Assembly: GCA_963718515.1 (NCBI GenBank)
Contig: OY970354.1
Location: 238,363-302,362, forward strand
Reading direction: 5' to 3'
DNA length: 64,000 nucleotides
Origin: an uncultured bacterium
GTDB lineage: Bacteria; Patescibacteriota; Minisyncoccia; UBA6257; 2-01-FULL-56-20
Shown here: piece by piece, positions 256-59,482 of the stretch
How positions within the stretch are numbered: the stretch's first letter is position 1
Layout: every line of letters begins with the position of its first letter
Program-made: the position numbers and the translations under genes
The notes under the pieces: generated by a model
Told to the model about the DNA's origin: nothing
Seen by the model: only the letters and a program-made list of their open reading frames with translations
Databases searched by the model: none

Positions 256-256
256 T

Positions 257-1018: not shown

Positions 1019-1023
1019 TATCC

Positions 1024-1902: not shown

Positions 1903-1910
1903 TATCAATA

Positions 1911-6494: not shown

Positions 6495-6602
6495 GGGAAT
6501 CGTACCTTAACTCATACAGAATAGCCGAAAATACGGCCCTCGTAAATCATGCACTTCGTCCGGGCGGGTGCACAAAAAACCGGAATACGTTACAATGTGC
6601 AT

Positions 6603-7508: not shown

Positions 7509-7515
7509 TTTTATT

Positions 7516-7980: not shown

Positions 7981-7981
7981 A

Positions 7982-8010
7982 ATACCCCGCAAAGGAGCGG
8001 GGTATTTTAT
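7982..8010. terminator. bidirectional intrinsic terminator between convergent genes
   Basis: ATACCCCGC-aaagga-GCGGGGTAT hairpin flanked by A-rich and T-rich tracts. Confidence 0.7.
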
Positions 8011-8012
8011 TT

Positions 8013-9350: not shown

Positions 9351-9357
9351 AGCGTCA

Positions 9358-10227: not shown

Positions 10228-10228
10228 A

Positions 10229-12689: not shown

Positions 12690-12690
12690 A

Positions 12691-13302
12691 TTATTCCTTT
12701 TCAAGCTTTCTTGCGTAACGGGCGACGTACTTTCTTTGGACGTACGCGACGATGAGGATCACGACAACCGCGCCCGCGATCACATAACCGCCGATGTGGA
12801 GGTAGTGGTCGATCGTGTCATACGCGGTGCCAAAGTAATAGCCGAGGATGAGATAGATGAGCGACGTGGGGATCGTGATAGCGGCGGACCAGAAGGCGTA
12901 TTTTTTGATGTCCATCTTGGTGGCACCCACGATGATGAGCCCCGGCGTGGCGAGGAGCGGGATCATCTTGATGGCGAACAAAGATTTTCCGGAATGCCTC
13001 TTGGCCAATTTTTCCACGGTCGCGATCCGCCCTTTCGTTATCCCGACATAATGGCCATATTTATTAAGGAAGTTTTCTCTGCCCCAGTAACCGATGGCGT
13101 AATAGACGAGATCCGGGATCAGGTTTGCAAGAATGGAGAGCAAGAGCACGATCCACACGTTGAAATAATGGAGCGCGGCCACGAATGCGCCGGCCGCGGT
13201 GACGACCGGGCCTTCAATAAGCATGACGATAAAGAGCAGCGGGTAGCCGTGGTGGAGTATCCACTGGACGGTTCCCTGGAATCCAACCGCGATCAATGCC
13301 AT
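12691..13302 (-). CDS. DedA/SNARE-associated family membrane protein
   Basis: Only the distal 203 aa of the 334-aa ORF look real, starting at MALIAVGF (ATG 13302). HHGYPLLFIVMLIEGPVVTAAGAF is the DedA signature. Confidence 0.75.
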   Translation of the reverse strand: MALIAVGFQGTVQWILHHGYPLLFIVMLIEGPVVTAAGAFVAALHYFNVWIVLLLSILANLIPDLVYYAIGYWGRENFLNKYGHYVGITKGRIATVEKLAKRHSGKSLFAIKMIPLLATPGLIIVGATKMDIKKYAFWSAAITIPTSLIYLILGYYFGTAYDTIDHYLHIGGYVIAGAVVVILIVAYVQRKYVARYARKLEKE

Positions 13303-13320
13303 ACCTGTTATACTATACGA

Positions 13321-13971
13321 ATGCTTACGGTATTCAAAGAGCACAAAGGATTCTGGACGCCTGCGCGGAAGCGTTCGATGTGGCTCGGCGTCTTTTTGCT
13401 CGCGATCAGCATCGTTATCCAGATAACGCTTGGTGAGTATTCTTCGCGTGCGGCGGTCGGTGCGCCGTGGGTGAGTGATCTTTTTTTGAGCTTTTTGCCC
13501 GTCGTGAACCTGGGATTCGTCATCGTGGGATGCGAGATCGTCCTGTGGGTCTTTGCGTGGGTGCTTTTGATCGTCCGTCCCCGCTATCTTATCTTTGGGA
13601 CGAAGGCGATCGCACTTTTCATTATTTCTCGGGCGTTTTTCTTTAGCCTTACGCACATCGGTCCTTATCCCACGAATATTTCTCCTGGGCCGCACAACGA
13701 CGGATATGGCTTATATCATCTCGTCACGTTTTCGGGCAATTTCTTTTATTCCGGGCACACGGGATTTCCGGTCATGCTTGCGCTGATCTTTTGGGACAAC
13801 AAATTTTTGCGCTATGCCTTTATCGCCCTCAGCTTTTTGTTCGGTGCCGCCGTGCTTTTGGCGCATGTCCACTACTCCATCGATGTCTTTGCGGCACCGT
13901 TCATCGTGTACGGCGTGTTCGTTATCACGAAGAAGTTCTTCCCGCACGATTATGCCTTGATAGAACCATAG
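13321..13971 (+). CDS. PAP2_C-like membrane phosphatase/transferase (sphingomyelin-synthase-like fold)
   Basis: Only the distal 216 aa of the 429-aa ORF look real, from the ATG at 13321. The protein is polytopic, with SGHTGFP ... LLAHVHYSIDVFAAP (SGH / H-Y-x-x-D motifs). Confidence 0.55.
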   Translation: MLTVFKEHKGFWTPARKRSMWLGVFLLAISIVIQITLGEYSSRAAVGAPWVSDLFLSFLPVVNLGFVIVGCEIVLWVFAWVLLIVRPRYLIFGTKAIALFIISRAFFFSLTHIGPYPTNISPGPHNDGYGLYHLVTFSGNFFYSGHTGFPVMLALIFWDNKFLRYAFIALSFLFGAAVLLAHVHYSIDVFAAPFIVYGVFVITKKFFPHDYALIEP

Positions 13972-13994
13972 GCATACGATATCATTAATATATT

Positions 13995-14801
13995 ATGAAA
14001 AAAGATTTGCCCCCATCAGAATCGGAGCCGGTGCTCGCAGAACAAACCGTAATCGTTAGCGAGGGCTCCTCTCGTAAGCGCGATCTCTTTTTGCCGATCA
14101 GCATCCTTGCGGCGGCCATCATGGTGGGCGGGGCGATCGTATTCGCGACGTTGTATCGGGGTGGAGCAACACCCGGAACGGGAACGACGCCGGGCGTCGG
14201 TACGACAGGCAATCCTAGCGCCGCTTCCACGACGGCAAATGGTTCCGTGATGACGCTCGGCCCGCGCGATGCGATCCTCGGCAATGCCAACGCTCCCGTG
14301 ACGCTCATCGAGTATGGCGACTATCAGTGTCCGTTCTGTGGCGAGTTCTTTAGCCAGACCGAGCCATCGATCATCCAAAATTATGTGAACGCGGGCAAGG
14401 TCCGGTTCGTCTTCAGGAACTTCGCATTCCTTGGGCCCGAATCGACCGCCGCCGCGGAAGCCGCCGATTGCGCGGAGGATCAGAACAGGTTGTGGGCGTA
14501 TCACGACGCGCTCTATAGCGCTAAGGTCGCCGATGATGCCGGTGGCGGCCAGGAAGACGACGGATTCTTCAGTGCCGCAGAAGTTTTAAAGCTTGGCCAG
14601 CAAGTGGGACTCAATATGACGACCTTCACGAGTTGTGTTCAAAATAACACCGATGCCAACCTCGTTGCCCAAGAAAAAGGTGATGCGGCGAACTTTGGCG
14701 TTAATTCCACGCCCACGTTCTTTATAAACGGCGCCATGATCACCGGTGCCCAGCCGTATTCTGTCTTCCAGCAGGCCTTGGATAGCGCGTTGCAGGGATA
14801 G
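13995..14801 (+). CDS. DsbA-family thiol:disulfide oxidoreductase, membrane anchored
   Basis: N-terminal TM segment and a YGDYQCPFCGEFF CxxC thioredoxin-fold motif. Confidence 0.8.
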   Translation: MKKDLPPSESEPVLAEQTVIVSEGSSRKRDLFLPISILAAAIMVGGAIVFATLYRGGATPGTGTTPGVGTTGNPSAASTTANGSVMTLGPRDAILGNANAPVTLIEYGDYQCPFCGEFFSQTEPSIIQNYVNAGKVRFVFRNFAFLGPESTAAAEAADCAEDQNRLWAYHDALYSAKVADDAGGGQEDDGFFSAAEVLKLGQQVGLNMTTFTSCVQNNTDANLVAQEKGDAANFGVNSTPTFFINGAMITGAQPYSVFQQALDSALQG

Positions 14802-14850
14802 GACGGCGTGCCGTTTTGACTTTCGCCTCCCTCGCTCATAAAATAGAGCT

Positions 14851-15075
14851 ATGGTTCGCAAGTGGACGGAATTAATTGTTGGAATTATACTTATCATCTC
14901 GCCGTGGATGTTCGGCTTTTCTGACATCTCGGTGGCGCGGTGGTGTAATGTGTTTGCAGGATTGATATTGGTCCTCGTGAGCGCATCGGAAGTGTTTGGG
15001 ATGAAGCTCCCGCCCGCAGCGCCTGCAGAATCGGAACCGAAAAAGAAAAAACAAAATAACAACGTCGAAAAATAA
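14851..15075 (+). CDS. SPW-repeat small membrane protein
   Basis: 74 aa. IVGIILIISPWMFGF contains the SPW motif, and there are two hydrophobic helices. Confidence 0.55.
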   Translation: MVRKWTELIVGIILIISPWMFGFSDISVARWCNVFAGLILVLVSASEVFGMKLPPAAPAESEPKKKKQNNNVEK

Positions 15076-15104
15076 ATTTTTAATAATTATTTACCACTAT
15101 CATC

Positions 15105-15347
15105 ATGGCAAAAGTCATTATCTACAGCACCCCGACCTGCGTTTACTGCAAGATGGCAAAGGAATTTTTTGCCAAGAACAATGTTGCGTACGAAGAGCAT
15201 GATGTCGCGTCCGACATGAAGGCGCGCGAGGACATGATGGCGAAATCCCACCAGCTTGGCGTTCCTGTCATCGACATCGACAACAACATTGTCATCGGGT
15301 TCGATCAGAAGACGATAGAGGGATTGCTAGGATTGAAGAAGGCGTAG
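15105..15347 (+). CDS. glutaredoxin-like protein (YruB/NrdH-like)
   Basis: 80 aa. VIIYSTPTCVYCKMAKEFF carries the CxxC motif, and GVPVI is present. Confidence 0.8.
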   Translation: MAKVIIYSTPTCVYCKMAKEFFAKNNVAYEEHDVASDMKAREDMMAKSHQLGVPVIDIDNNIVIGFDQKTIEGLLGLKKA

Positions 15348-15374
15348 CAATAGTAAAATTTTAATCGAAATGTA

Positions 15375-16304
15375 ATGTACGATCTCATTATCATCGGCGG
15401 TGGGCCGGGCGGCGTTGCCGCCGGCATTTATGCCGCTCGCAAAAAAATGAAGACAGCGTTGATCACCGACACGTTCGGTGGGCAGTCTTTGGTTTCCGCC
15501 GGGATCGAGAACTGGATCGGTACGAAGTCCATCTCCGGTTTTGATCTTGCGAAGGCGCTCGAAGAACATCTTCGCGCACAGCAGGGGATCGATATTATGG
15601 ACGGCGATCTCGTGACGGCCATTGCCAAGCGTGATGACGGCACGTTTTCCATTTCCACAAAGAATGGCAAAACGCTCGACGCAAAATATATCCTGCTCGC
15701 GTCCGGTAGCCGCCGCAAACGGCTCGGCGTTCCGGGCGAGGACCAGTTCGACGGCAAAGGCGTCGTGTTTTGCACCACCTGCGACGCGCCGCTCTTTGGC
15801 GGCAAGGTCACCGCGGTCGTGGGCGGTGGTAATTCCGCGCTCGAAGGCGTGATGGATCTTTTACAGTATGCTTCAAAGATCTATTTGATCGTGCGTTCCG
15901 AAGTCTTGCGCGGCGACCCGGTCACCCAGGAAAAGATCAAGAGCCATCCGAACGTGGAGATACTTTGGAACACGGTCATTGAGGAGATCCACGGCTCTCC
16001 CGAGACCCATTTTGTGAACGGCATCAAATATAAGGATGTCAAAACGAACGAGCCAAAAGAGCTTCCTCTCGACGGCGTTTTTGTGGAGATCGGCCTTGTG
16101 CCCAACTCCGATTTCGTGAAGGACTTGGTCACGCTCGATCCGTTCGGCCACGTGGTTGTGGACCATAAGACCCAGGAGACATCGTGCCCCGGCATCTGGG
16201 CCGCTGGCGACGTGAGCGATGTTTTGTACGACCAGAACAACATCTCGGTAGGCGACTCCATCAAGGCGGTGCTGAACGTCTATGACAAGATTAAAAAAAG
16301 TTAA
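15375..16304 (+). CDS. trxB: thioredoxin-disulfide reductase
   Basis: YDLIIIGGGPGGVAAGIYAAR (FAD site), CTTCDAPLF redox-active CxxC, VVGGGNSALE (NADPH site) and GIWAAGDV. Confidence 0.8.
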   Translation: MYDLIIIGGGPGGVAAGIYAARKKMKTALITDTFGGQSLVSAGIENWIGTKSISGFDLAKALEEHLRAQQGIDIMDGDLVTAIAKRDDGTFSISTKNGKTLDAKYILLASGSRRKRLGVPGEDQFDGKGVVFCTTCDAPLFGGKVTAVVGGGNSALEGVMDLLQYASKIYLIVRSEVLRGDPVTQEKIKSHPNVEILWNTVIEEIHGSPETHFVNGIKYKDVKTNEPKELPLDGVFVEIGLVPNSDFVKDLVTLDPFGHVVVDHKTQETSCPGIWAAGDVSDVLYDQNNISVGDSIKAVLNVYDKIKKS

Positions 16305-16393
16305 AAAGATTTTTGACTTTGTTGGTACGAAGAGTAGTATTTTCGTGAGGGTGCTACCCGCATAAGTTGCGGCTGGGATCTGTACTTGTCGTG

Positions 16394-16423
16394 AAAACAG
16401 CCACTATGCGTGGCTGTTTTTAT
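16394..16423 (+). terminator. intrinsic terminator downstream of trxB
   Basis: ACAGCCAC-tatgc-GTGGCTGT followed by TTTTTATTT. Confidence 0.7.
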
Positions 16424-16573
16424 TTAACGGAGATTTAACGAACAAACAGTTATATTTTTTAGGCCTGCGTATTTGGGCCTGTAGTTTATGTGGTAAAACA
16501 GTACCCTCGACAAGTACAGGAGCGGGTTCGGACACCGCCAGGTCCGCAGGCACCGCGGTAGATCGAGCACTTC

Positions 16574-16601
16574 TTGACTCCCGCCTTTTTTCGCCTATAA
16601 T
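16574..16601 (+). promoter_or_regulatory. sigma70-type promoter of groES-groEL
   Basis: TTGACT (16574-16579), a 16-nt spacer, then TATAAT (16596-16601). Confidence 0.65.
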
Positions 16602-16606
16602 TCCTA

Positions 16607-16633
16607 TTGGCACTCACTAGTCACGAGTGCTAA
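16607..16633 (+). promoter_or_regulatory. CIRCE operator (HrcA binding site)
   Basis: TTGGCACTC-N9-GAGTGCTAA compared with the consensus TTAGCACTC-N9-GAGTGCTAA. It lies between the promoter and groES. Confidence 0.85.
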
Positions 16634-16658
16634 ATTATTCATAAATCATAAAAAACTG

Positions 16659-18635
<1,977 letters not shown>

Positions 18636-21168: not shown

Positions 21169-22077
21169 ATGGCAGCAAATCTCTACACACTTCAATCGTC
21201 GAATATCCGGCGCACGTGGATGCTGTTCATCGTGTTCTTCATTGTGATCGGCGCGCTTGGATATTTTATCTCGGTGTATTATGGTGATCCGGATATTCTT
21301 ATTTTCGCGCTGATCTTTTGCGTTGTGTATTCGCTCATCAGTTATTATTCTTCGGCAAGGATCGCGCTTTCGCTTGCGCGGGCCAAGCCGATCGAGAAGG
21401 CCGACAATCCGATGCTCTATAACCTAGTGGAAAATCTGACGATCACCGCGGGCCTGCCGATGCCAAAGCTTTACATCACGCCGGAGCTTCAGATCAACGC
21501 GTTTGCGACGGGTCGCGATCCCCAGCACGCAGCGGTGGCCGTGACGCAGGGCGCTTTGCAAAGATTAAATAAAGATGAACTGCAGGGCGTGCTCGCGCAC
21601 GAGCTTTCGCACGTGGGCAACCGCGATATTTTGGTCTCGACCGTGGCGGCGATCCTTGCCGGCATCATCGCGCTCATTGCGGATGTTTTCTTGCGCTCGC
21701 TCTTTTTTGGCGGCATGGGCGGCGGCTGCGGACGTGGCAACGGCGAAGCGCAGGAAATATTCTTCATCGCCGCGATCGTGCTTTCGATCCTCGCGCCGAT
21801 CGGCACGATGCTGATCCAGCTCGCGATCTCGCGCCGCCGCGAAGCGCTCGCCGACGCGTCGGGCGTGCTCCTTACGCGCTATCCGGAGGGATTAATCTCC
21901 GCTTTGCAAAAAATTCAGCAGGACGAGACGCCGATGGCCTCGGCCAAGGATTCCACCGCGCACATGTGGCTCGACACGCCGTTCAAGGGCAAGGGCGCTT
22001 CGTGGTGGCACACGCTCTTTGCGACGCATCCGCCGATCGAACAACGCATCGCGGCGCTGGAGAAAATCTCGGTGTAA
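21169..22077 (+). CDS. htpX: M48 zinc metalloprotease HtpX
   Basis: HELSHVGNRD (HExxH), four TM segments and a C-terminal HPP..QRI. The start abuts the lemA stop. Confidence 0.85.
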   Translation: MAANLYTLQSSNIRRTWMLFIVFFIVIGALGYFISVYYGDPDILIFALIFCVVYSLISYYSSARIALSLARAKPIEKADNPMLYNLVENLTITAGLPMPKLYITPELQINAFATGRDPQHAAVAVTQGALQRLNKDELQGVLAHELSHVGNRDILVSTVAAILAGIIALIADVFLRSLFFGGMGGGCGRGNGEAQEIFFIAAIVLSILAPIGTMLIQLAISRRREALADASGVLLTRYPEGLISALQKIQQDETPMASAKDSTAHMWLDTPFKGKGASWWHTLFATHPPIEQRIAALEKISV

Positions 22078-22138
22078 CGTTTTCTTCTCGGATCGGAATT
22101 TTAATAATTATTTAATCTATCTATGCTATGTTCTCGGC

Positions 22139-22867
22139 ATGGCACAGAAAATCTTTAAATTAGGAACAATTGATAGCCGTATAAAAGGAGGCAAGATTTC
22201 ACAACAACGACGACGCGAATACCCTGAAAAATATCGGGCTTTAGGCTGTAAGGTAAAAAAAGTTTTTATACAGCCGGAATATTCAACCGCATTCGCAGAA
22301 TTTATTGGGATTGTGCTTGGGGATGGAGCTATTAGTAACTATCAAGTGAGGATAACATTAGATCGATATCGCGACCGGGAATACGCCAATTTTGTAAAAA
22401 ATCTTACGGAAATCGTCTTGGGTGAGACTCCGTCTGTGGCAATTTATGAATACGATAATACAATCTCGTTAACCCTCTCGGGGATCGGTCTAGTAGAGAT
22501 GCTTGAAAGAGTGGGAATGACAAGGGGAGATAAAATCGCTCACCAGGTTTCCTTCCCTAAATGGATAAGAGATGATTTAAGCTACCGCATTGCATGCGTG
22601 CGAGGTCTTTTTGATACGGACGGTGGGTTATATTTTCACCAAAAAGCCGAGAAAAAATATTTGGGATGGTGTTTTTCAAGCAAGTCAGAACCATTACTTG
22701 TCGATGTATATGACGCATTGCGAAATTTGGAATTTAATGTTAAAAAAGCAGGAGGGTATAAACTCTGTATGTATCGCCTTAGCAGTATCGAGCGATACTT
22801 ATCGTTAATAGGATCAAGTAATCCCAAAAACGATGCGAGGATGAGATTTTATAAAGCTCAAAAATGA
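22139..22867 (+). CDS. free-standing LAGLIDADG-family homing endonuclease-like protein
   Basis: ATG at 22139. Two LAGLIDADG-type motifs are present: FIGIVLGDGAI and VRGLFDTDGGLY. The gene is clearly AT-richer than its flanks. Confidence 0.7.
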   Translation: MAQKIFKLGTIDSRIKGGKISQQRRREYPEKYRALGCKVKKVFIQPEYSTAFAEFIGIVLGDGAISNYQVRITLDRYRDREYANFVKNLTEIVLGETPSVAIYEYDNTISLTLSGIGLVEMLERVGMTRGDKIAHQVSFPKWIRDDLSYRIACVRGLFDTDGGLYFHQKAEKKYLGWCFSSKSEPLLVDVYDALRNLEFNVKKAGGYKLCMYRLSSIERYLSLIGSSNPKNDARMRFYKAQK

Positions 22868-22871
22868 AGAA

Positions 22872-22958
22872 GGAGAGGTGTGCGAGTGGCTGAAACAACG
22901 ATCCTGGAAAGATCGTATGTCCGAAAGGGCATCGAGGGTTCGAATCCCTCCCTCTCCG
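22872..22958 (+). tRNA. tRNA-Ser (anticodon GGA)
   Basis: GGAGAGG/CCTCTCC acceptor stem, anticodon loop CUGGAAA, long variable arm and T-loop GGTTCGAATCC. Confidence 0.85.
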
Positions 22959-23001
22959 CTAACTAAAAATATTCACGTCCATTGTTTGATATAATAGAAA
23001 G

Positions 23002-23415
23002 ATGAACATACTATCTATCCTCGTTTCCGCGATTGCATGTTTTATTATAGGGTTCCTGTTCCACGGACCTCTTTTTGGAAAGACGTGGATGCGACTGGCC
23101 AATGTGACGATGCCTGAGAAGCCGAACTTCAAGGACATGCTGAAGCCGATGTTCTGGAATTTTGTGACGAACATAGTGTGCGCGTCGGTGCTTTCAATGA
23201 TGATTTGGATCGCTTCATATTCGTCCATCATGGGTCCGATGACGTGGTATAAGGGTATGATTATTGGCGCATGGCTTTGGCTGGGCTTCACCGCAATGTG
23301 GACCGCGATCGATGTGATCTGGATGAAGAAATCATGGAAACTTTGGCTTTTCGATTCGATCTCTTTCCTCGTCTCCATCGTGGCAATGGGCGTGATTTTA
23401 GGTGCTTGGCGCTAG
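23002..23415 (+). CDS. DUF1761-family membrane protein
   Basis: 137 aa with 4 TM segments. The N-terminus is ...IIGFLFHGPLFGKTWMRL. Confidence 0.6.
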   Translation: MNILSILVSAIACFIIGFLFHGPLFGKTWMRLANVTMPEKPNFKDMLKPMFWNFVTNIVCASVLSMMIWIASYSSIMGPMTWYKGMIIGAWLWLGFTAMWTAIDVIWMKKSWKLWLFDSISFLVSIVAMGVILGAWR

Positions 23416-23528
23416 TGGTATTTTAAGATTTATTCAGAACTCGGTTCCACGCTGTCCGCAATTGATTCCTCAGAATCATCATGGTATAAATTGTCTCAGC
23501 AGTCCGTAATCGAGAGAGTGAGGCAAGT

Positions 23529-24200
23529 ATGAAACGCAGGTTGATATTCACCTTGGCGGTAGCGGCGTTCGGTCTTCCGGCGTTTGCACAGAGCGCGCCG
23601 CAAGCGAATTCTGCACAACCTTCAACCACCGGCATCATCGATCGCCTGAAGGATCCGGACCAGAGGAAACAGCTTGAGCAGGCGCTCGATATTCTCCAGA
23701 AAGCGGCGAACGATCAAGCCCAAGATGCGAAGTCCGGGGACCATAAGACCGTCGGCGATGCTTTGGATAAGGGCCTCGACATGGCCAAAGAAACCGTCGT
23801 CTATCTGGCGGGCAAGATCGAGCAGGTGGCTCCTCAGCTCTGGCGGGTGCTGGTCATCCAGCAGTATGTGAAGGGCGCGACATTGCTCATTCAGCCAATC
23901 GGGTTCTTGTTCTTGGTTTGGATCTATCGCCGTTTGTTGTTAAAATGGTGGAGGCCCTCGCCTAGCGACGACAACCCCGAGGAACGGCTCATTGATCCGG
24001 GCGGTGCGGATGAAATTCCTTGGCCAACGCATAAGGGTTGGAGAGGGACGCTCACGATTGCCGTTCCCTTGGTTGCGATAATTGTTGGGGGGATTTGGTT
24101 TTACACTGCGTTCACAAATGCGGCCGGCTACTTCATCAACCCCAATTACTACGCGCTGAAGGACATCATTCAGCTCGTCAGGAACCCCGCCGGATTCTAG
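23529..24200 (+). CDS. hypothetical secreted/membrane protein
   Basis: Signal-peptide-like start MKRRLIFTLAVAAFGLPAFAQ, plus two later hydrophobic segments. Confidence 0.5.
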   Translation: MKRRLIFTLAVAAFGLPAFAQSAPQANSAQPSTTGIIDRLKDPDQRKQLEQALDILQKAANDQAQDAKSGDHKTVGDALDKGLDMAKETVVYLAGKIEQVAPQLWRVLVIQQYVKGATLLIQPIGFLFLVWIYRRLLLKWWRPSPSDDNPEERLIDPGGADEIPWPTHKGWRGTLTIAVPLVAIIVGGIWFYTAFTNAAGYFINPNYYALKDIIQLVRNPAGF

Positions 24201-39539: not shown

Positions 39540-39572
39540 AGACCATCTTTGTTGGTAGGGATGCTATAATTT

Positions 39573-40115
39573 ATGAATATGTTTGCGCTTGATCAGAAAG
39601 TTTTTCAGTTCATTTACGCGGCTGGGCATCATAATACATTTTGGGATGTACTTGCGATATTCTTTGCGGAGTATCTGCCCTATTTGCTGGTGCTCGCGTT
39701 TCTCGTGCTTGTCTATTATCAGAAGGGCTGGCGGCGGAAGGTCTATCTTTTTTGCGAAGGTGCGCTTGCAATCATTCTCGCGCGCGGCGTTATTGTAGAA
39801 GTCATCCGATTCTTTTACCACGAGCCGCGGCCGTATTTTTTTTATAGTCTTACACCGCTCATTAACGAGGGCGGATGGTCTTTTCCATCGGCGCATGCGG
39901 CGTGGTTCTTCGCGCTCGCGATGATCGTCTGGTACGCCAATCGCAAGTGGGGGTGGTGGTTCTTTGGACTTGCGACGCTTATGGGTATCGCCCGCGTCTA
40001 CGCCGGCGTCCACTGGCCGATCGACATCCTGGCCGGCGCGGTGGTGGGCATCGTCTCGGCGCTATGCATTCATTGGTTGTTGAAGGGGAGTAGAAAAAAG
40101 CTGGAGGCAGTATAG
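39573..40115 (+). CDS. PAP2 family phosphatase (BcrC / undecaprenyl-diphosphatase-like)
   Basis: SFPSAHAAWFFALA and ARVYAGVHWPIDILAG (PAP2 motifs), with 4-5 TM segments. Confidence 0.75.
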   Translation: MNMFALDQKVFQFIYAAGHHNTFWDVLAIFFAEYLPYLLVLAFLVLVYYQKGWRRKVYLFCEGALAIILARGVIVEVIRFFYHEPRPYFFYSLTPLINEGGWSFPSAHAAWFFALAMIVWYANRKWGWWFFGLATLMGIARVYAGVHWPIDILAGAVVGIVSALCIHWLLKGSRKKLEAV

Positions 40116-46876: not shown

Positions 46877-48392
46877 ATGCAAAAAGAGACACTCAAAAAT
46901 ATTCCAATAAAGACTGCCCTAAAAGCTCGCCCCCCGATCGTCGTCGTGATGGGGCATGTTGATCATGGCAAGACCACATTACTTGATTACATCCGCAAAG
47001 CGAACATCGCCGCGCGCGAGGCGGGCGGCATCACGCAGGCCACTGCCGCTTACGAGATAGAGCATCGCTCGAGCGGCGCGCCCGCGGCCGAACCCGCGCG
47101 CAAGATCACGTTCATCGACACGCCCGGGCATGAGGCGTTCACCGCCATGCGCTCGCGCGGCGCGCAGGTCGCCGACCTTGCGATACTTGTCGTCGCCGCG
47201 GACGAAGGCGTAAAGCCCCAGACCAAAGAAGCGATCGAAATAATAGAGAACTCAAAGACGCCGTTCATCGTCGCTATCAATAAAGTTGATAAGACCGGTG
47301 GCAACCTGGACAAGGCACGCAACGACCTCATGGCCGCAGGAGTTTTGCTCGAAGGATATGGTGGACAGGTGAGCTATCACGCTGTTTCCGCAAAGACGGG
47401 CGAGGGCGTAGATGAACTTCTCGACCTCATCCTCCTTGCCGCAGACATCGAGAACCTTACGTACGATCCGTCGCTCGCGGCATCGGGCTTTGTGCTCGAG
47501 GCAAAGCGCGATCCGAAGCGCGGCATCGAAGCGACCGTCATCGTAAAGAACGGCACGCTCACGCGCGGCGATACGATCGCGACGCACACCGCGTCCGGCA
47601 AAGTGAAGATCCTCGAAGATTTTTTGGGCAAGACGGTTGCAATGTTTGGAACCGTCCGCGCCGGCGCTCATCATCGGGTTTGAAACAATTCCAAAAGTGG
47701 GCGAGGAATTTTCGGTGGGGGAATCAAAAGAAGAGAAAAGTGTGCCCGCGATGAGCGTGCCGACGGGATCCCTTGCAAATCAAATTGCAAGGTCCAAGCC
47801 GAACACACTTAACCTTATATTGAAGGCCGGCGATGCCGGATCGCTCGAGGCGCTCTCGGTTGTTCTGCGTGGCATCGATCAGAAGGGTGGCAAGGAGATA
47901 AATATAGTAGAGGAGGGCGTAGGCGATATCACGGACGGTGACATTCGCCATGCGATGGCGACGAAAGCGACGATCATCGGATTCAAGAACCGCGTCGAGA
48001 AGGGCGCGAAGGTGTTGGCTGATGCGCAGGCGGTGACGGTCATCACGTCGGAGATCGTGTATGATCTTTCGACCGCAGTGGAGGAATATTTTAGCGGAGC
48101 GCGCGGGCCGGCGGCGGCGGGCGAACTGGAAGTGCTCGCGCTCTTCAATCAGGAAAAACCGCAGAAACAGTTGGTGGGCGGCCGCGTGACGAGCGGCACG
48201 TTCCGCGGGAAAGTTTCGTTCGACATCGTGCGCGGCCACGTGGGTTCTGCGCCGGTGGGCAACGGCAAAGTCCTTGGCTTACGCGAAAAAAAGAGCGAGA
48301 TTTTCCAGGCGGAAAAAGGAAAAGAGATTGGCGTTTTGATCGACGCGCAGACGCTCGTGCAGGTCGGAGATAAATTATTGATCAGGAAATAA
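46877..48392 (+). pseudogene. infB: translation initiation factor IF-2 (short form) with one +1 frame disruption (about 47645-47648)
   Basis: [30 protein letters not shown] and NKVDK (G domain). ...FLGKTVAM/LEPSAPALIIGFETIPKVGEEF needs removal of one T from ATGTTTGG. Confidence 0.85.
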
Positions 48393-50615: not shown

Positions 50616-50701
50616 TGGTGCCCGAGGAGGGAGTCGAACCCTCATGACCTTGCGATCGATGGATTTTGAGTCCATTGCGTCTGCCATTCCGCCACCCGGG
50701 C
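50616..50701 (-). tRNA. tRNA-Leu (anticodon CAA), CCA encoded
   Basis: The reverse complement is GCCCGGGTGGCGGAATGGCAGACGCAATGGACTCAAAATCCATC...GAGGGTTCGACTCCCTCCTCGGGCACCA. Confidence 0.85.
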
Positions 50702-51559: not shown

Positions 51560-52385
51560 ATGGCACGCGTTATCGCGATATGTAATGCAAAGGGCGGCGT
51601 TGGGAAAACCACGACCGCGGTAAATCTCGGCGCGTATCTTGCCGCCGCGGGAAAGCGCGTTTTGCTCGTTGACTTTGACCCGCAGGCGAATGCGAGTTCG
51701 GCGCTTGGCCACAACCAGATGGCAGGCGAGCCGAGCGTGTATCACGGCATACTTGATCAGGTGACGCCGGAACAGGTGATCAAGCCGACCGTCATCTATA
51801 ATTATCACTACGTGCCGTCGGCGCCGCATCTTGCCGGGGCGCTCGTGGAATTGGTGGACGTTCCCGAGCGCGAATATTTTTTGCGGAAATTTATCAATCG
51901 CGTGCGGCACAGCTACGATTACATTTTGATCGACCTTCCGCCGTCGCTCAGCCTGCTCACGGTGAACGGCATGGTGGCCGCCGACGAGAGTATTGATTCC
52001 GGTGCAGACGGAATATTACAGCTTGGAAGGCATCGGCCAGATGCTCGAAACGGTGAATTTGATCCGCGACAATTTGGCGCACCCGGTGCGCATCACGGGC
52101 GCGGTCATCACGATGTACGACAAGCGCGAGCATTTGAGCCGCGAAGTTTCAAAAAATATCCGCCGCCATTTTCCGCACCACGTCTTTGATGTTGAGATCC
52201 CGCGCGCGGTCGCACTCGCCGAGGCGCCAAGTTTTTCCAAGCCGATCATTTTATATCGTCCCGATTCGCCGGGCGCGCAGGCGTACGAGCGGCTCGCGCG
52301 CGAGATAATAGATCAGGAGTTGGCGCTTGCCCAGGCCGTGGCGGCGCCGGTCGCAAGCGAAAATTTCGGCAATTTTAATATCTAA
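51560..52385 (+). pseudogene. parA: chromosome partitioning ATPase ParA/Soj with one +1 frame disruption (about 51989)
   Basis: VIAICNAKGGVGKTTTAVNLG (deviant Walker A). ...LTVNGMVAADE/VLIPVQTEYYSLEGIGQML... needs removal of one nucleotide in GAGAGTA. Confidence 0.85.
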
Positions 52386-52386
52386 T

Positions 52387-53457
52387 ATGTTAGGCAAAGG
52401 ACTCGAGTCGTTGATACCAAAAAATAATCAGGGGCAGGGCGCGGACGGTGATCAGCCGAACGATACCAGCACGCCGGCGCGTTCGGATTCGCCCCGTCCG
52501 GAGCCCCAGCCGTCCGCCCAGCCACATCCTGGGTTCGTTCCTCCGGCACCCGCCGTTGCGCCCGCGATTCTACCGGCGCACCCTTCGCCCCAGCCGCAAA
52601 AGCGCGATGAGCTCGCGCAGGAATCGATATTTCATATCGAGATCGAGAAGATCACGGCGAATCCCGACCAGCCCGGCGGCATTTTGACGAAGATGCTCTG
52701 CACGAGCTCGCGAGTTCCATCCGCGAGTTCGGATTCCTCCAGCCGCTCGTCGTTTCAAAAGTAGAGAAAGAAACGCCGACCGGCATCAGCAGTGGAGTAT
52801 CAGATCATCGCGGGCGAGCGCCGCTTTATGGCGGCCAAGATTCTTGGCCTCCCGCGCGTTCCCGCGATCGTCCGCAATATAAATTTAGAACGCGAGAAAC
52901 TTGAGCTCGGCGTAATCGAGAACATTCAAAGAGAAAATCTGAATCCGATCGAAATGGCGCGCGCGTTCCAGCGTCTGCAGGAGGAGTTCCGCATGACCCA
53001 GCGCGAGATCGCGGCGAAGCTCGGCAAGAGCCGCGAGGTGGTGGCGAACAGCGTGCGCCTGCTTGATCTGCCGGAATACATCCAGCGCGCGGTGGAAAAG
53101 GGCGAGCTTTCGGAAAGCAACGCGCGCCTGCTCATCGCGATCGAAGACCCGGGCGCGCAGAAGGCCATGCTCGACGATATCGTGCAGAACAAATTGACGA
53201 CGCGCGATGTGAGGGAGCGCATCCAGCGTGCCAGCGCTCCGGCGGGGACGCCTGGTTCTCACCGCCGCGGCCGGCCGCCCCTGCAAGAGGTTCGGCTCGC
53301 GCCGGAGGTGAAGGCGATGCAGGACGAACTAAGCACCACGCTCGGCGCACCCGTCGAGATCAGCAAGAACGCGAACAACGGCAAGATCAGCATCACCTTC
53401 TTTTCGGAAGAAGAGTTGGAAAGCATCCTCCGTCGCTTAGGAAAAGAGAGAGAATGA
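52387..53457 (+). pseudogene. parB: chromosome partitioning protein ParB/Spo0J with one -1 and one +1 disruption (about 52672-52675 and 52788-52791)
   Basis: MLGKGLESLIP... is followed by a Pro-rich linker, then IEIEKITANPDQP/RRHFDEDALHELASSIREFGFLQPLVV...TPTGIS/VEYQIIAGERRFMAAK. The middle 40 aa read only in another frame. Confidence 0.8.
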
Positions 53458-53474
53458 TGGGTCGCTAATAAAAA

Positions 53475-53539
53475 GAACCTCCCAGTTTTCTGTCGAATTA
53501 TTCTTATCACGAGGCAGAAAGCTGGGAGGTTCTTTTTTT
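53475..53539. terminator. long bidirectional hairpin terminator between parB and relA/spoT
   Basis: GAACCTCCCAGTTTTCTG (53475-53492) pairs with CAGAAAGCTGGGAGGTTC (53515-53532) with one mismatch. A5 precedes it and T7 follows. Confidence 0.75.
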
Positions 53540-55058
53540 ATGCCTCCCACCTTCGCGATTTTTTCTTCCGCAGCACCGACCGGATATGATCCTTCGCGAT
53601 CGTTGTCTTTACGAACCGCAGCCAGTCCTCCGACGGACGCTTTCCTTTTTGCGTGACGATCTCGACGACGTCGCCGGATTTAGAGGGTGGTCGAGCGGCG
53701 TTGCGACGCCGTTCACCTTTGCGCCCGTCGCGGCGTCGCCGATCTCCGAATGGACGTGGTATGCAAAATCGATCGGCGTGGATCCGGCGGGAAGATCGAT
53801 CACATCGCCGCGCGGCGTCACGGCAAAGATGCGCGATTGGAAGAAATCGATCTTCATCGCTTGCAGGAATTCTTCCGGATCATCAGCGTTGCCGTCAAAT
53901 CGTTCCTGCCAGTGTTTTAATTGCTGGACCCACTCGATTTCCTGCGCAAGCTTTTTTCCGGAACGGCTTCACGCCGCCGTCCTTGTTCTCTTTATAGATC
54001 CAGTGCGCGGCAACCCCGTATTCGTTCTCGTCGTGCATCTCTTTGGTGCGGATCTGGAACTCCACGCGTTTGCCGTCGGGGCCGATGACGGTCGTGTGCA
54101 GACTGCGATAGGCGTTGGGTTTTGGCATCGCGATGTAATCCTTGATGCGGCGCGGGAGCGGCGGCCACGCTTCGTGGATCACGCCGAGCGCGGCGTAGCA
54201 CTCGGGGAGCGTTTCCACGATGACGCGCATGGCGACGAGGTCATGCACGCGGTCGATGTCCATATCGCGCTTCAACAATTTTTTATACAGACTGCTGTAG
54301 CGCTTTGCGCGGATCTCGATGTCGAGCGGTTTGATATCGTGCTCCTTCAATAATTTTTTGACCTGGGGTTTTATCTTTTCCAGATATTTCGATCGTTCCG
54401 CGAATCGTTCTTTTGCCGCTCGCAAGAGCCATTCGTATTCGCGCGGGTGAAGATAGGGGAATGCGAGATCCTGCAGTTCGCCGCTCACGTTATGCATGCC
54501 GAGCCGGTAGGCGAGCGAGGCGTAGATCTCGTCGGTCTCGAGCGCGACGCGCTTTTGCTTTGCGGGCGGCAGTGCGGCGAGCGTCTGCATGTTGTGCAGG
54601 CGGTCGGCGAGCTTGATGAAGACCACGCGGAGATCCTGGCTGAGCGCCAGGATCATTTTTCGGAGATTTTCCGCCTTGCTCTGTTCCGTCGCCAATGCCG
54701 CCGCGGTCAGTGCGCCTGTCTTACCGCGTCCCTTCTCTGCGAGCGCGGCGTTGTCGCGATATTTGATATGGCCGAGCTTGGTGACGCCATCCACGAGGAA
54801 CGCCACCTCTTCGCCGAATTCTTTTTTGATCGTCTCGAGCGGTACGCCGGTATCTTCTACGGTGTCGTGCAGTAGTCCTGCGGCGACCGTCGCCTCGTCC
54901 ATGTGCCACGACTGCAAGATCTCCGCCGTCGCGAGCGCATGGTTAAAATATGGTTCGCCGCTTTTTCGCTTCTGCCCCGTGTGTGCCTTTTCCGCGAACG
55001 CATACGCGCGTCCGATAAGGCTCTCCGGATTTTTTTTGGCGAATTCTTTGACGCTCAT
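53538..55058 (-). pseudogene. bifunctional (p)ppGpp synthetase/hydrolase (RelA/SpoT homolog: HD + synthetase + TGS) with two frame disruptions (T6 run at 53952-53957; about 53679-53682)
   Basis: LLHDTVEDT (HD domain), RVIVETLPECYAALGVIH and YRSLHTTVIG (synthetase domain). ...FRKK/LAQEIEWVQQLKHW...MKIDFFQSRIFAVTPRGDVIDLPAGSTPIDFAY (TGS domain) ...HPL/KSGDVVEIVTQKGKRPSEDWLRFVKT. Confidence 0.8.
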
Positions 55059-55067
55059 AGGCTCCGG

Positions 55068-57316
55068 TTACGCTTTTTTCTTTACTACCTTTGGCTTTGG
55101 CGGATTTTCTATCCAGTGCTTCAGCGCGGCCTGGAGCTCTTCTTCCGATTCCGGTTTTTTATTCATCACGAATGTGCAGTCGGGATAGCGCGTGCAGGCA
55201 AAGAACGGTTTGCCGCGCCCGCGCGATTTTTTTTCCACGATGTCGCCGGGCTTGTCGTGGCGCTCGGGCGATGCGAGGCAGTTCGGACATTTGAATCCGG
55301 TCTTGTTCCAGATCTTCACGATGCCTTTGCACTTTGGATAATCAGTGCAGCCAAGGAAGAATCCAAAGCGGCCGCGCGTGACCTTCATCGGTTTGCCGCA
55401 GATCGGACAGCGTTCATCTTTTGTTTTTTCTTCAAGCGCTTTTATTTGCGCGGCTTCTTCCGGCATCGGGAGCGTCACCTTCACGCCCGGCTCGGGGCAG
55501 GCGAGGAATTTTCCCATGCGGCCGAACTTGATGAGCATCGGCTTGCCGCAGTGCGGGCAGGGCGTGGTAGAGATCTCCACCTGTTTTTCCACGCTCGCTT
55601 CTTTTTCGTCCAGATTCTTTTTGAACGGGCCGTAGAATTCGCGGCACACTTCGGTCCATTTCATTTTTCCCTCCGCGATCTCATCGAATTCTTCTTCAAT
55701 ATGCGAAGTGAATTTAATGTCGACGATCTCCGGGAAGTTTTCGACGAGCAGGTCGTTCACCAAAATGCCGATCTCGGTCGGCACATATTTTTTTCCAGTT
55801 TTTCCACATAGCCGCGCTCTTGGATGGTCGAAAGCGTTGGTGCGTAGGTTGACGGGCGGCCCATGCCTTCGGCTTCGAGCGCTTTCACGAGCGTTGCGTC
55901 GGTGTAGCGCGCGGGCGGTTCGGTAAAGTGCTGGAGCCGCCGGGTTTTCGCTATCGCATTCCAGCTTGGCGAGCGTGAGCGCCATATCTTTTTCGAGCTT
56001 CGGCAAGCCGCCTTCGATCTCATCGCTTGCATCTTCATCGCGTCCTTCGGTGTACACGCGGATGAATCCGTCGAACATTACCGTCTGGCCGTTCGCGCGG
56101 AAGATTTCTTTGCGCGGCGTGTTCGCCTCGATGTCCACCGGCAGTTTGTTCAAGCGTCGCTTCCTTCATTTGCGATGCGATCGTGCGCTTCCAGATAAGA
56201 TCGTAGAGGCGTGCTTCGCCGCGGTCTTTGAGGCCGATGGCACCACCGGACGTTGCCTCGAGGTTCGTGGGCCGGATCGCTTCGTGCGCTTCCTGCGCGC
56301 CTTTGCTCTTGGTGGAATAGTGCGTGGCGCAGAGAGCTGGTATTCTTTTCCAAATTCTTTGCCGATCACGCTCTGCGCCTGTGCAAGCGCCGACGCGGCA
56401 AGGTTCACGCTGTCGGTCCTCATATACGTGATGTGGCCATTTTCGTAAAGATGTTGCGCGACGACCATCGTCTGTTTCGCGCAGAAGCCGAGCTTTGCGC
56501 GCCGCTTCCTGCTGGAGCGTAGACGTGGTGAACGGCGCCGACGGGTTCCGGCGCACTTCTTTTACGGTAATGTCCGCGATCCGATAATCCGCGCCTTTCA
56601 GTCCCTCTATAATATGCTTCGCCTCCGCCTCATTCGTGATGCCCATTTTGCCGACGGCCTTGCCATTAATAGAATTGAGCACGGCAGGGAACGGCGATTT
56701 TCCTTTTGGCGGCAGGAAAGATGCCTCGATCGTCCAGTATTCTTCTTTATTAAAAGCCTGGATAAGGCGCTCGCGTTCCACGACAAGCCGCACCGCCACG
56801 CTTTGCACGCGGCCGGCGGAAAGCCCGTAGCGGATCTTGCGCCACAAGAAACGGCGAGAGCTCGTAGCCGACGAGGCGGTCGAGAACGCGCCGCGCCTGC
56901 TGGGCATCCACGAGATTGATGTCGAGCGCGCGCGGATGTTCGAGCGCTTCAGGATCGCGTCCTTCGTGATCTCGTGGAACGCGATGCGTTCGTATGGCCG
57001 CGCCGTCTTCTTTTCTTGTCGAGCTCGAGCGCGCTCACGAGATGCCACGCGATCGCTTCTCCTTCGCGGTCTTCGTCGGTTGCGAGAATGACGCGGTCTG
57101 CTTTCTTTGCGAGCGCGCTTCAAATTGTCCACCACCGGCTCGGCTTTTTTGGGGATCACATAGGTCGGCTCAAAATCGTGTGCAACGTCGATGCCGATTT
57201 TGCTCTTTGGAAGGTCGCGAATGTGGCCGTAGGATGATTCGACGGCAAATTGCTTTGCCGACGAACTTGCTGATGGTCTTTGCTTTGGTGGGCGATTCGA
57301 CGATGATGAGGTCCAT
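55068..57316 (-). pseudogene. topA: DNA topoisomerase I with about 10 single-nucleotide frame disruptions
   Basis: MDLIIVESPTKAKTISKF (Toprim), [38 protein letters not shown] (catalytic Tyr context), [19 protein letters not shown] and C-terminal CxxC zinc ribbons. The correct reading hops between all three frames. Approximate disruption sites are 57250, 57112, 57012, 56948, 56849, 56494, 56320, 56141, 55960 and 55788-55794. Gene length mod 3 = 2. Confidence 0.85.
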
Positions 57317-57338: not shown

Positions 57339-58382
57339 TTATATTGTATACCCGCGATCCGATTCTTTGACGATTCCTCTTATAATAAGGAAGCTCAATG
57401 CGCGGTTGACGATTCGGGGTTCAAGTTTAGTCATCTCCACCAATTTGTCAACACTCGCGCCCGACGATATCTCCGCGAGGGCTTTTAGAATAAGGATTTC
57501 TTCGGTGGACGCGGAGACCGCCACGCGCGCCATCGCAACTTTTTTATCCACGCCATACGCCTCCATAATATCGTCCGGCGATGACACGAATTCCGCCCCT
57601 TGACGGATAAGCGCATGAGACCCTTTGAAGTTCGCGGCGGTCATCGCTCCAGGTGTCACGAATACTTCGCGGTTCTGTTCCACGGCATAGCGTGCGGTCG
57701 CGAGCGCACCGGACGATTCGGGTGCTTCGACGATGAGCGTGCCACGCGCAATGCCGCTAATGATCCGGTTTCGTTCTATGAAGCGGTACCCGTATGGCGG
57801 TTCATTGGGCGGATATTCGGAGATGAGCGCACCGCCGTGCTCGAGAATTTTGCGCGCGAGTGGTTCGTGCGTTTGGGGATAGACATCATCCAATCCCCCG
57901 GCAAGCACCGCGACGGTTGCACCGCCCGCATCCAGGCATCCCTCGTGTGCAGCGGCGTCGATACCGAACGCGAGCCCGCTCGCGATCGTAAATCCTGCGC
58001 CCGCGAGTTCGCGTGCGAACATACGCGCGGTGGTCTTTCCATCCGCGCTTGCCCGGCGGGTTCCCACGATCGCGAGCGTGAGATCATTGGCAGAGAGCGT
58101 CCCGCGTATATAGAGGCCGAAGGGGGATTGGGAAATATGGCGGAGCGGTTCCGGATATTCCTCTTCCCACGGCATCACAAGTCGCACGCCGAGGCGATCG
58201 AGCTCTCCATATGCCTCGGCGGGATCTGGAAGTATCACGCCGTTTTCTTTCGCCACGTCATTTTCTTTCAATGCGTGGTACGCGGCCTCCCAGCTTTCCG
58301 CCCCCGCCCGATATTTTTTTGCCGCATAGTGATCGCCATGCGCCGCGATGGCGATCGCGTGATAAAAAAGTGTTTCGTTCAT
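57339..58382 (-). CDS. dprA: DNA processing protein DprA (Smf)
   Basis: LAIVGTRRAS..., IASGLAFGIDAAAHEG and RNRIISGIARGTLIVEAPESSGALATA. The gene is intact and sits in the conserved position upstream of topA. Confidence 0.85.
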   Translation of the reverse strand: MNETLFYHAIAIAAHGDHYAAKKYRAGAESWEAAYHALKENDVAKENGVILPDPAEAYGELDRLGVRLVMPWEEEYPEPLRHISQSPFGLYIRGTLSANDLTLAIVGTRRASADGKTTARMFARELAGAGFTIASGLAFGIDAAAHEGCLDAGGATVAVLAGGLDDVYPQTHEPLARKILEHGGALISEYPPNEPPYGYRFIERNRIISGIARGTLIVEAPESSGALATARYAVEQNREVFVTPGAMTAANFKGSHALIRQGAEFVSSPDDIMEAYGVDKKVAMARVAVSASTEEILILKALAEISSGASVDKLVEMTKLEPRIVNRALSFLIIRGIVKESDRGYTI

Positions 58383-59319: not shown

Positions 59320-59391
59320 GCGCGATTAGCTCAGTGGTAGAGCGTCACATTGACATTGTGAAGGCCGGAGGTCCGATCCCTCCATCGCGCA
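59320..59391 (+). tRNA. tRNA-Val (anticodon GAC), T-loop TCCGATC
   Basis: GCGCGAT/ATCGCGC acceptor stem, D arm GCTC-AGTGGTA-GAGC, loop UUGACAU, T arm GGAGG-TCCGATC-CCTCC (C at position 55). Confidence 0.8.
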
Positions 59392-59410
59392 CACTGCCTT
59401 AGCAGTACGC

Positions 59411-59482
59411 GCGCGTGTAGCTCAGTGGTAGAGCATTTCACTGATAATGAAAAGGTCCTTGGTTCGATTCCAAGTACGCGCA
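59411..59482 (+). tRNA. tRNA-Ile (anticodon GAU)
   Basis: GCGCGTG/TACGCGC acceptor stem, loop CUGAUAA, T arm CTTGG-TTCGATT-CCAAG. Confidence 0.85.

Follow-up and report, generated by a model that had tools for sequence, protein, structure and literature searches.

The ten breaks in the reading frame of topA, the gene for DNA topoisomerase I (type IA), are very probably a consensus artefact from merged haplotypes in the metagenome assembly of a Paceibacterota (CPR) bacterium. The stretch of DNA in which they lie, 64 kb in all and called the window here, is part of a metagenome-assembled genome (MAG) of this group, probably assembled from long reads.

The frame changes in topA were located by frameshift-aware protein-to-DNA alignment to three intact TopA proteins that are 90-92% identical (P0001, P0002, and P0003). 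Against each of the three references, 10 frame changes were found, and their signs in the 5' to 3' direction of the gene are +1,+1,-1,-1,+1,+1,-1,+1,+1,-1, with a net of +2; the length of the gene, 2249 nt, is 2 mod 3. These values reproduce exactly the number, sign series, net shift, and length remainder given in a preliminary description of this DNA. The same description had arranged the indels into locally compensating pairs. We found no compensation beyond chance; with a net shift of +2 and an irregular frame path (0,1,2,1,0,1,2,1,2,0,2), this reading was rejected. The start frame is never regained at the end of the gene, and a full-length product cannot be translated from topA as written in the window. 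An open reading frame (ORF) of 374 aa at 56035..57159 exists as described, and the four stretches quoted for it are indeed in the true frame. The corrected coding sequence, read in its two wrong frames, has a stop density of 2-3.5% per codon, and the openness of this long ORF may be unremarkable. Most of the indels can be placed only to within 1-3 nt, exhaustive single-base repair being ambiguous at most sites. A reference-free 7-state coding HMM recovered 7 of the 10 shifts; it also flagged ordinary gene boundaries, and each of its calls was therefore checked by hand or with Pfam. The positions of all features are collected in Table 1.

Table 1. Genes, topA frameshift sites, and the point of divergence from contig L003, in window coordinates
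Feature	Position	Strand	Frameshifts	Description
topA (type IA DNA topoisomerase I)	57316..55071, stop codon ending 55068	minus	10	11 frame segments via 10 one-base-equivalent indels
topA frameshift 1	57256	minus	+1	GGC[A]AAG, extra A after third codon position; L003 has GGC AAG
topA frameshift 2	57117..57120	minus	+1	AAG[C]GCG; extra C is the final base of the L003 alternative codon CGC
topA frameshift 3	57010..57016, near 57013	minus	-1 (seen as +2)	2 surplus bases relative to L003
topA frameshift 4	56950..56951	minus	-1	CT-, third base missing; relatives have CTC, CTG, CTT, or ATG
topA frameshift 5	56851..56852	minus	+1	CCG[T]TTC, adjoins a G/A difference to L003 (CCA TTC)
topA frameshift 6	56496..56497	minus	+1	CGC[A]AAG; CGC (most relatives) and CGA (L003) both kept
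topA frameshift 7	56320	minus	-1	ATC to A-C; missing T outside a homopolymer, no known SNP adjacent
topA frameshift 8	56139..56143, near 56140	minus	+1	GCC[G]GTG; GCC and GCG alleles of relatives both present
topA frameshift 9	55936..55960, near 55938	minus	+1	Length-variable segment; base position not exactly placeable
topA frameshift 10	55793..55797, near 55794	minus	-1	GA- without third base, then AAA AAA; relatives have GAT, GAG, or GAA
dprA	57339..58382	minus	0	Intact, end-to-end with homologues, no frameshift relative to L001; control 22 nt from topA
Loss of identity between window and L003	57414..57423			Beyond it, 69 mismatches and 9 gaps in the last ~1250 nt (BLAST)
relA/spoT-family gene	53400..55058	minus	~3	Near 53978, 53682, and 53557; the last poorly placed
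parB	52387..53457	plus	2	-1 at 52675/52676, +1 at 52788/52789
parA	51560..52385	plus	1	51989/51990; GAG[A/G]TA, L073 allele (ATA) plus allele of relatives (GTA/GTG)
pilB / type II secretion ATPase	61169..62885	plus	1	62375; GT[C][G]CAG
groES and groEL	16662..18635	plus	1 and 3	groES near 16715; groEL near 17245, 17965, and 18020; three-frame reading
gyrB	32300..34428	plus	2	Near 33395 and 33510; Pfam domains over three ORFs and three-frame reading
infB (IF-2)	46880..48392	plus	1	Near 47655; GTP_EFTU and IF-2 domains on two ORFs and three-frame reading

The defect is not special to topA. The window contains at least 24 frameshifts, all of them in highly conserved genes (groES, groEL, gyrB, infB, parA, parB, relA, topA, and pilB). 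None was found in the ~45 kb occupied by glycosyltransferases, peptidases, transporters, dprA, and similar genes, and dprA is indeed as free of frameshifts as the preliminary description had stated. In groEL, positions 1-57, 56-318, and 331-484 of the Cpn60 profile are spread over three separate ORFs. Among 10 syntenic genes, amino acid identity to L001 was 0.76-0.92 for the frameshifted genes and 0.60-0.77 for the intact ones (Mann-Whitney P = 0.008). Three doubtful tRNA calls were also compared with relatives, giving no matches. The earlier claim that topA is the densest cluster in the window held, as 0.84 shifts would be expected there from the window background compared with the 10 observed (Poisson P(>=10) = 2e-8); the excess remains when the remaining affected genes supply the expected rate (P = 8e-4). 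As a separate observation, the most affected gene, topA, is also the most conserved long gene locally.

Removal of the 10 frameshifts yields a complete TopA of 744 aa with 0 stop codons. Only then do the Toprim (PF01751, 2-96/96), Topoisom_bac (PF01131, 2-410/411; 405 bits), and Zn-ribbon (Zn_ribbon_Top1, PF01396) domains stand in one polypeptide, the raw ORFs giving partial matches. Over 99% of its length, the corrected protein shares 90-92% identity with proteins named DNA topoisomerase I (92% with P0001), and the gene order dprA-topA-relA/spoT-parB-parA is common to the window, L001, and L002. In domain set, identity, and synteny, the corrected gene is thus like Paceibacterota TopA, from which the gene as written differs in that it cannot yield TopA. 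At columns conserved in >=95% of sequences, corrected TopA has 1 private residue, compared with a median of 3 in 60 intact homologues. Furthermore, the topA part of L003, a contig from the same sequencing run, differs from the window by 67 substitutions in our alignment, distributed over codon positions 1, 2, and 3 as 15, 8, and 44, a bias indicating that the two haplotypes diverged under selection for an open frame. The topA gene is not decaying and carries a signature of purifying selection; the real topA of the organism is most probably intact and functional.

These findings bear on genuine pseudogenization, in which topA would be dead along with groEL, gyrB, and infB, perhaps with complementation by a sibling strain or a host. 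The indels do stand in the deposited sequence, and CPR bacteria are reduced symbionts. Consistent with a dead gene as well, a search for the window's own haplotype in intact form, among the cluster members of the ten best matches and with the N-terminal 329 aa, gave no TopA above ~91% identity. However, ten indels have accumulated with no stop in the corrected frame and no surplus of private amino acid changes, the substitutions are uneven across codon positions with a bias to the third, and it is the most essential genes that are struck, with accessory genes untouched. Pseudogenization is therefore very unlikely.

A second haplotype over topA, in line with the mixed haplotypes that the preliminary description had named as something to look for, was found in run ERR11630394. 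The comparison set consisted of independent Logan contigs of this run (L003, L071, L072, L073, and L074). Contig L003 shows 0 differences to the window over 1925 nt (59348 to 57424; dprA and upstream), and the dprA product is found in it exactly. Among GTDB species representatives, the best DprA match was 69% identical, which places the source genome outside that set. Over topA, L003 is about 5.5% different from the window, and it carries an uninterrupted topA ORF of 382 aa that spans frameshift sites 1-7. Similarly, L073 shows 0 differences over 886 nt, followed by 26 substitutions and exactly the 3 indels that cause the parA and parB frameshifts; it is 1.8% different over these two genes, its ParA is intact at 274 aa, and the start of its ParB is open. 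Contigs L071 and L072 match the window at 100% identity, and over 3450 nt L074 departs from it once, by a small intergenic difference. Outside the conserved genes there is 1 event in 9.1 kb, whereas inside them there are 95 mismatches and 10 frameshift indels in 2.66 kb. The 9.1 kb of near-perfect match comprises poorly conserved genes, and the divergence of 2-6% starts exactly where topA, parA, and parB begin.

The reading frame is open in L003 or L073 at all 10 of the sites that they cover (7 in topA, 1 in parA, and 2 in parB). That contigs of the same run are intact at these sites, with flanks matching the window exactly, also argues against pseudogenization, as does the identity of extra bases with alternative alleles. 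In the conserved genes, L003 and L073 carry a 2-6% different haplotype and not the window's own. This second haplotype could itself be partly an assembly construct, because Logan contigs follow paths in a de Bruijn graph and may be mosaic. Look-ups of exact products gave no match for the pilin, the truncated ParA fragment, rbfA, and the ORF upstream of gyrB, probably owing to differing called start codons.

The indels lie at allelic differences. Both alleles are present in the window at 51990 (the A of L073 and the G of relatives), 52789 (ACA and GCA), 56497 (CGC and CGA), and 57117 (AAG plus the C of CGC). Judged against relatives, the same applies to 56140 (GCC and GCG) and 62375 (GTC and GTG). 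At eight of the ten topA sites, the indel is at a third codon position with variation among relatives, and the remaining two sites fall in length-variable stretches; frameshift 3 lies in a Lys/Glu-rich stretch whose length varies among relatives. The association of the indels with third codon positions is suggestive and not rigorous, because most placements are ambiguous within 1-3 nt. At 57256, 56950, and 56320, no difference to L003 adjoins the indel, and at 56320 a T has simply been lost from a second codon position, so that some of the indels may be ordinary noise.

Merging of haplotypes would have produced this pattern as follows. Reads of a sister population would have been recruited at those genes that are conserved enough to merge (topA, parA, parB, relA, gyrB, groES/EL, infB, and pilB), and the consensus there would have been built from a mixed pile-up, with the second population 2-6% different in these genes. 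Where the haplotypes differ, usually at synonymous third positions or by small length changes, both alleles would be kept (+1) or the column would be dropped (-1), either of which would result in a one-base frameshift. The error presumably arose in an assembler or polisher step. Flye is known to build consensus contigs out of strains that are 97.6-98.65% identical (PMC8302730), and polishers mix haplotypes, thereby frameshifting heterozygous coding regions (PMC8092372, Fig. 1). As in strain collapse and haplotype switching by polishers, the window has two haplotypes 2-6% apart in the same run, both or neither allele at SNPs, and broken frames. Unlike strain collapse by Flye, the collapse is local to conserved genes and the flanks are unique, a pattern that points to reads recruited from a sister population rather than to strain collapse across the whole genome.

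The both-allele pattern could in principle also arise within living cells. The frameshifts would then be real in one co-existing Paceibacterota lineage with broken topA, groEL, gyrB, and infB, either beside an intact sibling population or as heterogeneous genome copies per cell, and the pattern would reflect recombination or repair between them. We consider this to be highly improbable.

Programmed ribosomal frameshifting or transcriptional slippage that restores the TopA frame was also considered. In some insect endosymbionts, slippage at long poly(A) tracts restores essential genes that carry frameshifts, which provides a precedent. However, the ten shifts in this single gene are of both signs, the sites have neither a long homopolymer nor a slippery heptamer (no run exceeds the A7 at 55794), intact relatives have none of the shifts, and the net frame is not restored. 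The probability of such recoding is negligible.

With merged haplotypes as the preferred reading, the topA frame breaks would be a problem of data quality and not of biology, and they carry little biological weight, since a normal topA is almost certainly present in the organism. The errors strike the very genes that serve as markers of phylogeny and completeness (gyrB, infB, groEL, topA, and parA), with accessory genes essentially error-free. Corruption of this kind would lower apparent genome completeness, place false "pseudogenes" in annotation that could pass for decay of a symbiont genome, and carry hybrid alleles into marker-gene trees. The pattern also offers a cheap, read-free diagnostic of collapsed populations, namely frameshifts that occur solely in the most conserved genes and fall on third codon positions that are polymorphic.

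Plain sequencing noise, that is, random errors from low-coverage long reads, such as homopolymer miscalls, arising independently of a second haplotype, is an unlikely source of the cluster. Some sites do resemble it: short runs change in length at 57256 and 56496 (AA to AAA) and at 56851 (TT to TTT), an A-run is involved at 55794, and the site at 56320 is unconnected to known SNPs. A Nanopore-only MAG of a relative, L028, is likewise frameshifted in nearly every gene. On the other hand, the errors in the window are confined to conserved genes, divergence from the contigs of the same run begins at gene boundaries, and several insertions lie outside homopolymers and equal the alternative allele. 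Runs at the shift sites are 2-3 nt long, except for the A7 at 55794, compared with the lengths of 8-9 and above that ONT homopolymer errors are reported to concern (PMC9262707). Homopolymer richness was examined as a cause of the topA cluster and rejected, since runs of >=4 nt occur at 13.8 per kb in topA, about the density in dprA (12.5) and below that in unaffected genes (17-20).

Long-read frameshift errors, as addressed by the IDEEL test (PMC9262707, PMC13087279), are similar to the defect in the window in that conserved essential genes are split by +/-1 indels, and frameshift errors are commoner in ONT soil assemblies (PMC13087279). Classical long-read errors are tied to long homopolymers and low coverage and are evenly spread, whereas those in the window are tied to conserved genes and allelic differences, with no link to homopolymer density. 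The same kind of defect is present in Nanopore-only MAGs of relatives, which were built with Flye and one round of Medaka (PMC12313526), and is absent from the short-read MAGs of relatives. With MAGs grouped as Nanopore-only or other from their record names, topA contained 9 frameshifts in L028, 1 in L023, and 1 in L011, all Nanopore-only, compared with 0 in ~22 other MAG loci (Fisher P = 0.006).

As written in the window, topA, encoding a type IA DNA topoisomerase I, is broken into four large ORFs plus a number of small ones. To place the frame jumps, three intact homologues of 741 to 755 aa (P0001 to P0003) were aligned to the DNA using a dynamic programme in which 1- and 2-base jumps were permitted. 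Ten jumps were found in each of the three alignments, and their signs reproduced exactly, in all three, the series +1,+1,-1,-1,+1,+1,-1,+1,+1,-1 that a preliminary description had read from the sequence alone. A net shift of +2 fits the topA length of 2249 nt, and frameshift-aware alignment gives ten changes, rather than two or fewer. As also described there, a 374-aa ORF (56035..57159) weaves in and out of the true TopA frame at the quoted stretches, and dprA, 22 nt from topA, is intact. Nothing is gained by viewing the indels as locally compensating pairs: the frame path runs 0,1,2,1,0,1,2,1,2,0,2, with no return to the start frame. Stop density in the wrong frames of the corrected coding sequence is 2-3.5% per codon.

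Frameshifts in the window, with topA sites numbered in gene direction
Feature	Position	Strand	Sign	Frameshifts	Basis
topA (type IA DNA topoisomerase I)	55068..57316	minus		10	homologue alignment
topA frameshift 1	57256		+1
topA frameshift 2	57117		+1
topA frameshift 3	near 57013		-1
topA frameshift 4	near 56950		-1
topA frameshift 5	56851		+1
topA frameshift 6	56496		+1
topA frameshift 7	56320		-1
topA frameshift 8	near 56140		+1
topA frameshift 9	near 55938		+1
topA frameshift 10	near 55794		-1
groES				1
groEL				3
gyrB				2
infB				1
parA				1
parB				2
relA/spoT				3
pilB				1

The frame-corrected topA product is 744 aa long and contains no stop codon in the corrected frame. Its Toprim domain and Topoisom_bac core are both complete, and zinc ribbons lie at the C-terminus. 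The product's nearest proteins are annotated as DNA topoisomerase I in Candidatus Paceibacterota / Minisyncoccia MAGs (90-92% identity), and the gene order dprA-topA-(variable)-relA/spoT-parB-parA is common to the window and the two metagenome contigs bearing the best matches. An alignment with 60 intact homologues gives the window TopA one private residue in columns conserved at 95% or more among them; the homologues themselves have a median of three and a maximum of thirteen. When the topA part of L003, a contig of the same sequencing run, was aligned to the window, 67 substitutions were counted, distributed 15/8/44 over codon positions 1/2/3. Ten indels without any stop and without relaxed selection are unlike a pseudogene, and topA, judged by its coding sequence, is not decaying. 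Genuine pseudogenisation of topA and the other affected genes is therefore highly improbable, since this selection signature speaks against it, the victims are the most essential genes, and the contigs of the same run are intact. Programmed recoding can be set aside almost entirely, as the contexts of the sites exclude it and the shifts are absent from relatives.

To count frameshifts across the window, a coding HMM, Pfam scans of ORF fragments, three-frame reading, and syntenic-protein alignments were combined. The defect is window-wide yet selective: at least 24 frameshifts were detected, while none were found in approximately 45 kb of glycosyltransferases, peptidases, an ABC transporter, ThyX, Dus, dprA, and others. 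Of the ten genes for which a syntenic reference exists, those with frameshifts showed 0.76-0.92 identity to their homologues on metagenome contig L001, compared with 0.60-0.77 for intact genes (Mann-Whitney P = 0.008). The most conserved long gene locally is topA (92% amino-acid and ~84-85% nucleotide identity to other species' members), which is indeed the densest cluster in the window, both against the window frameshift rate (P(>=10) = 2e-8) and against the rate in other affected genes (P(>=10) = 8e-4). Homopolymer density was rejected as the cause of the pattern: with 13.8 runs of at least 4 nt per kb, topA is not much richer than dprA (12.5) and is poorer than unaffected genes (17-20).

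The window was compared with contigs that Logan had assembled independently for run ERR11630394, from the same sample. L003 (3178 nt), found by exact-product look-up of DprA, matches the window base for base between 59348 and 57424, a span of 1925 nt; from 57423 onwards, in the final ~1250 nt, BLAST gave 69 mismatches and 9 gaps. Its topA ORF has 382 open codons up to the contig end, spanning frameshift sites 1-7. The same pattern recurs 5 kb away in L073, where 886 nt covering an AAA_28 gene and an intergenic spacer are identical to the window, followed from the parA start onwards by 26 substitutions, predominantly at third positions, and exactly three indels, at the three parA/parB frameshift sites. 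In L073, ParA is intact at 274 aa and the ParB N-terminus is open. Of three further contigs over poorly conserved genes, L071 and L072 match the window at 100% identity, and L074 departs from it at one small intergenic position over 3450 nt. In total, one event was observed in 9.1 kb outside conserved genes, against 95 mismatches and 10 frameshift indels in 2.66 kb inside them. That single event, at window 15005, is a 2-nt deletion plus one substitution in the spacer between DsbA-like and glutaredoxin genes. Divergence from L003 within topA is uneven, at ~7% over 57300 to 56350 and 2 substitutions in the last 184 nt (56166-56349), reflecting either a haplotype switch in the window consensus or in the Logan contig, or recombination between populations. 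The contigs stop at or near tRNA genes (window 50616-50701 and 59320-59483), L071 ending inside tRNA-Leu and L003 and L072 flanking a tRNA-Val/tRNA-Ile pair, which fits graph branching at sequences common to co-occurring populations.

Several indels coincide with allelic differences. At several +1 sites both alleles are present: at 51990 in parA (window GAG-A-G-TA; ATA in L073, GTA/GTG in relatives), at 52789 in parB (ATC-A-G-CA; ACA in L073, GCA/GCG in relatives), and at 56497 in topA (CGC-A-AAG; CGA in L003, CGC in most relatives). Both are likewise present at 57117, where the window reads AAG-C-GCG and the L003 codon is CGC; GCC and GCG are fused at 56140, as are GTC and GTG at 62375 in pilB. 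At the -1 sites 56950 (CT-), 55794 (GA-), and 52675, the variable base is absent. Eight of the ten topA sites lie at third positions variable among relatives and two in length-variable stretches. Sites 57256, 56950, and 56320 have no neighbouring L003 difference, a second-position T being simply lost at 56320, and exhaustive single-base repair resolved placement only to within 1-3 nt at most sites; for these reasons the apparent coincidence of indels and alleles is taken as strong at roughly half of the sites and as compatible at the others. Purely random noise could account for a few sites, but it is an unlikely source of the indels as a whole, as it explains neither their confinement to conserved genes, nor the abrupt onset of divergence at gene boundaries, nor insertions that match alleles.

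Collectively, the frame changes in topA are almost certainly an assembly or consensus artefact rather than biology. Reads or k-mer paths of a sister population, 2-6% divergent in conserved genes, would have been merged with those of the assembled organism, only in stretches similar enough to co-align. On such a mixed pile-up, the consensus may have divided some SNPs beside identical bases, and some small length differences, between distinct insertion and deletion columns, which would then be both kept or both dropped. The consensus-calling step, which we infer, is consistent with published behaviour: with Flye, strains sharing 97.6-98.65% identity end up collapsed into consensus contigs (PMC8302730), polishers mix haplotypes and may introduce frameshifts where coding regions are heterozygous (PMC8092372, Fig. 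1), and frameshift errors are a recognised problem in ONT soil assemblies, with near-finished consensus requiring ~40-fold coverage (PMC13087279, PMC9262707).

Loci of GTDB species representatives were grouped by record name alone, the MFD prefix denoting the Microflora Danica long-read project, whose MAGs derive from Nanopore reads only, with Flye assembly and a single round of Medaka polishing (PMC12313526). With this grouping by name, topA was frameshifted in 3 of 6 MFD-prefixed MAGs versus 0 of ~22 other MAG loci (Fisher P = 0.006), with nine frameshifts in L028 and one each in L023 and L011, where it is the sole local frameshift. L028 (CAVYIK010000003.1, locus 1-17000) belongs to a public Paceibacterota MAG, MFD01476.bin.2.169, Nanopore-only by its MFD record name, and carries ~30 frameshifts in 17 kb, including four each in relA and pilB and three each in parA and parB; the MAG is a GTDB species representative despite this heavily damaged coding sequence. 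As a practical warning, corruption in metagenome assemblies of mixed populations can fall selectively on marker genes.

Three ARAGORN calls, tRNA-Ser(cga) at 16475-16547, tRNA-Ser(gga) at 22872-22959, and tRNA-Leu(gag) at 35002-35074, all score below the Rfam tRNA gathering score, and two are 73 nt long, an implausible length for class II tRNAs. Indel damage to tRNA genes may be the cause, which would fit the occurrence of errors in highly conserved DNA. Two low-GC islands (22000-24000 and 36000-40000; GC 0.45-0.46 versus 0.53 for the window) may be mobile or recently acquired DNA; the former holds an ORF (22019-22867) with a LAGLIDADG_3 homing-endonuclease domain adjoining a tRNA call, and the latter zinc-ribbon and trypsin-like ORFs. 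Finally, a 429-aa plus-strand ORF at 12682-13971 is probably not a single gene: over this region, L074 shows a gene called on the minus strand and, after it, a 216-aa PAP2_C gene, and the minus-strand ORF 12691-13695 has a VTT domain. This is an ORF-shadow problem, not a frameshift.
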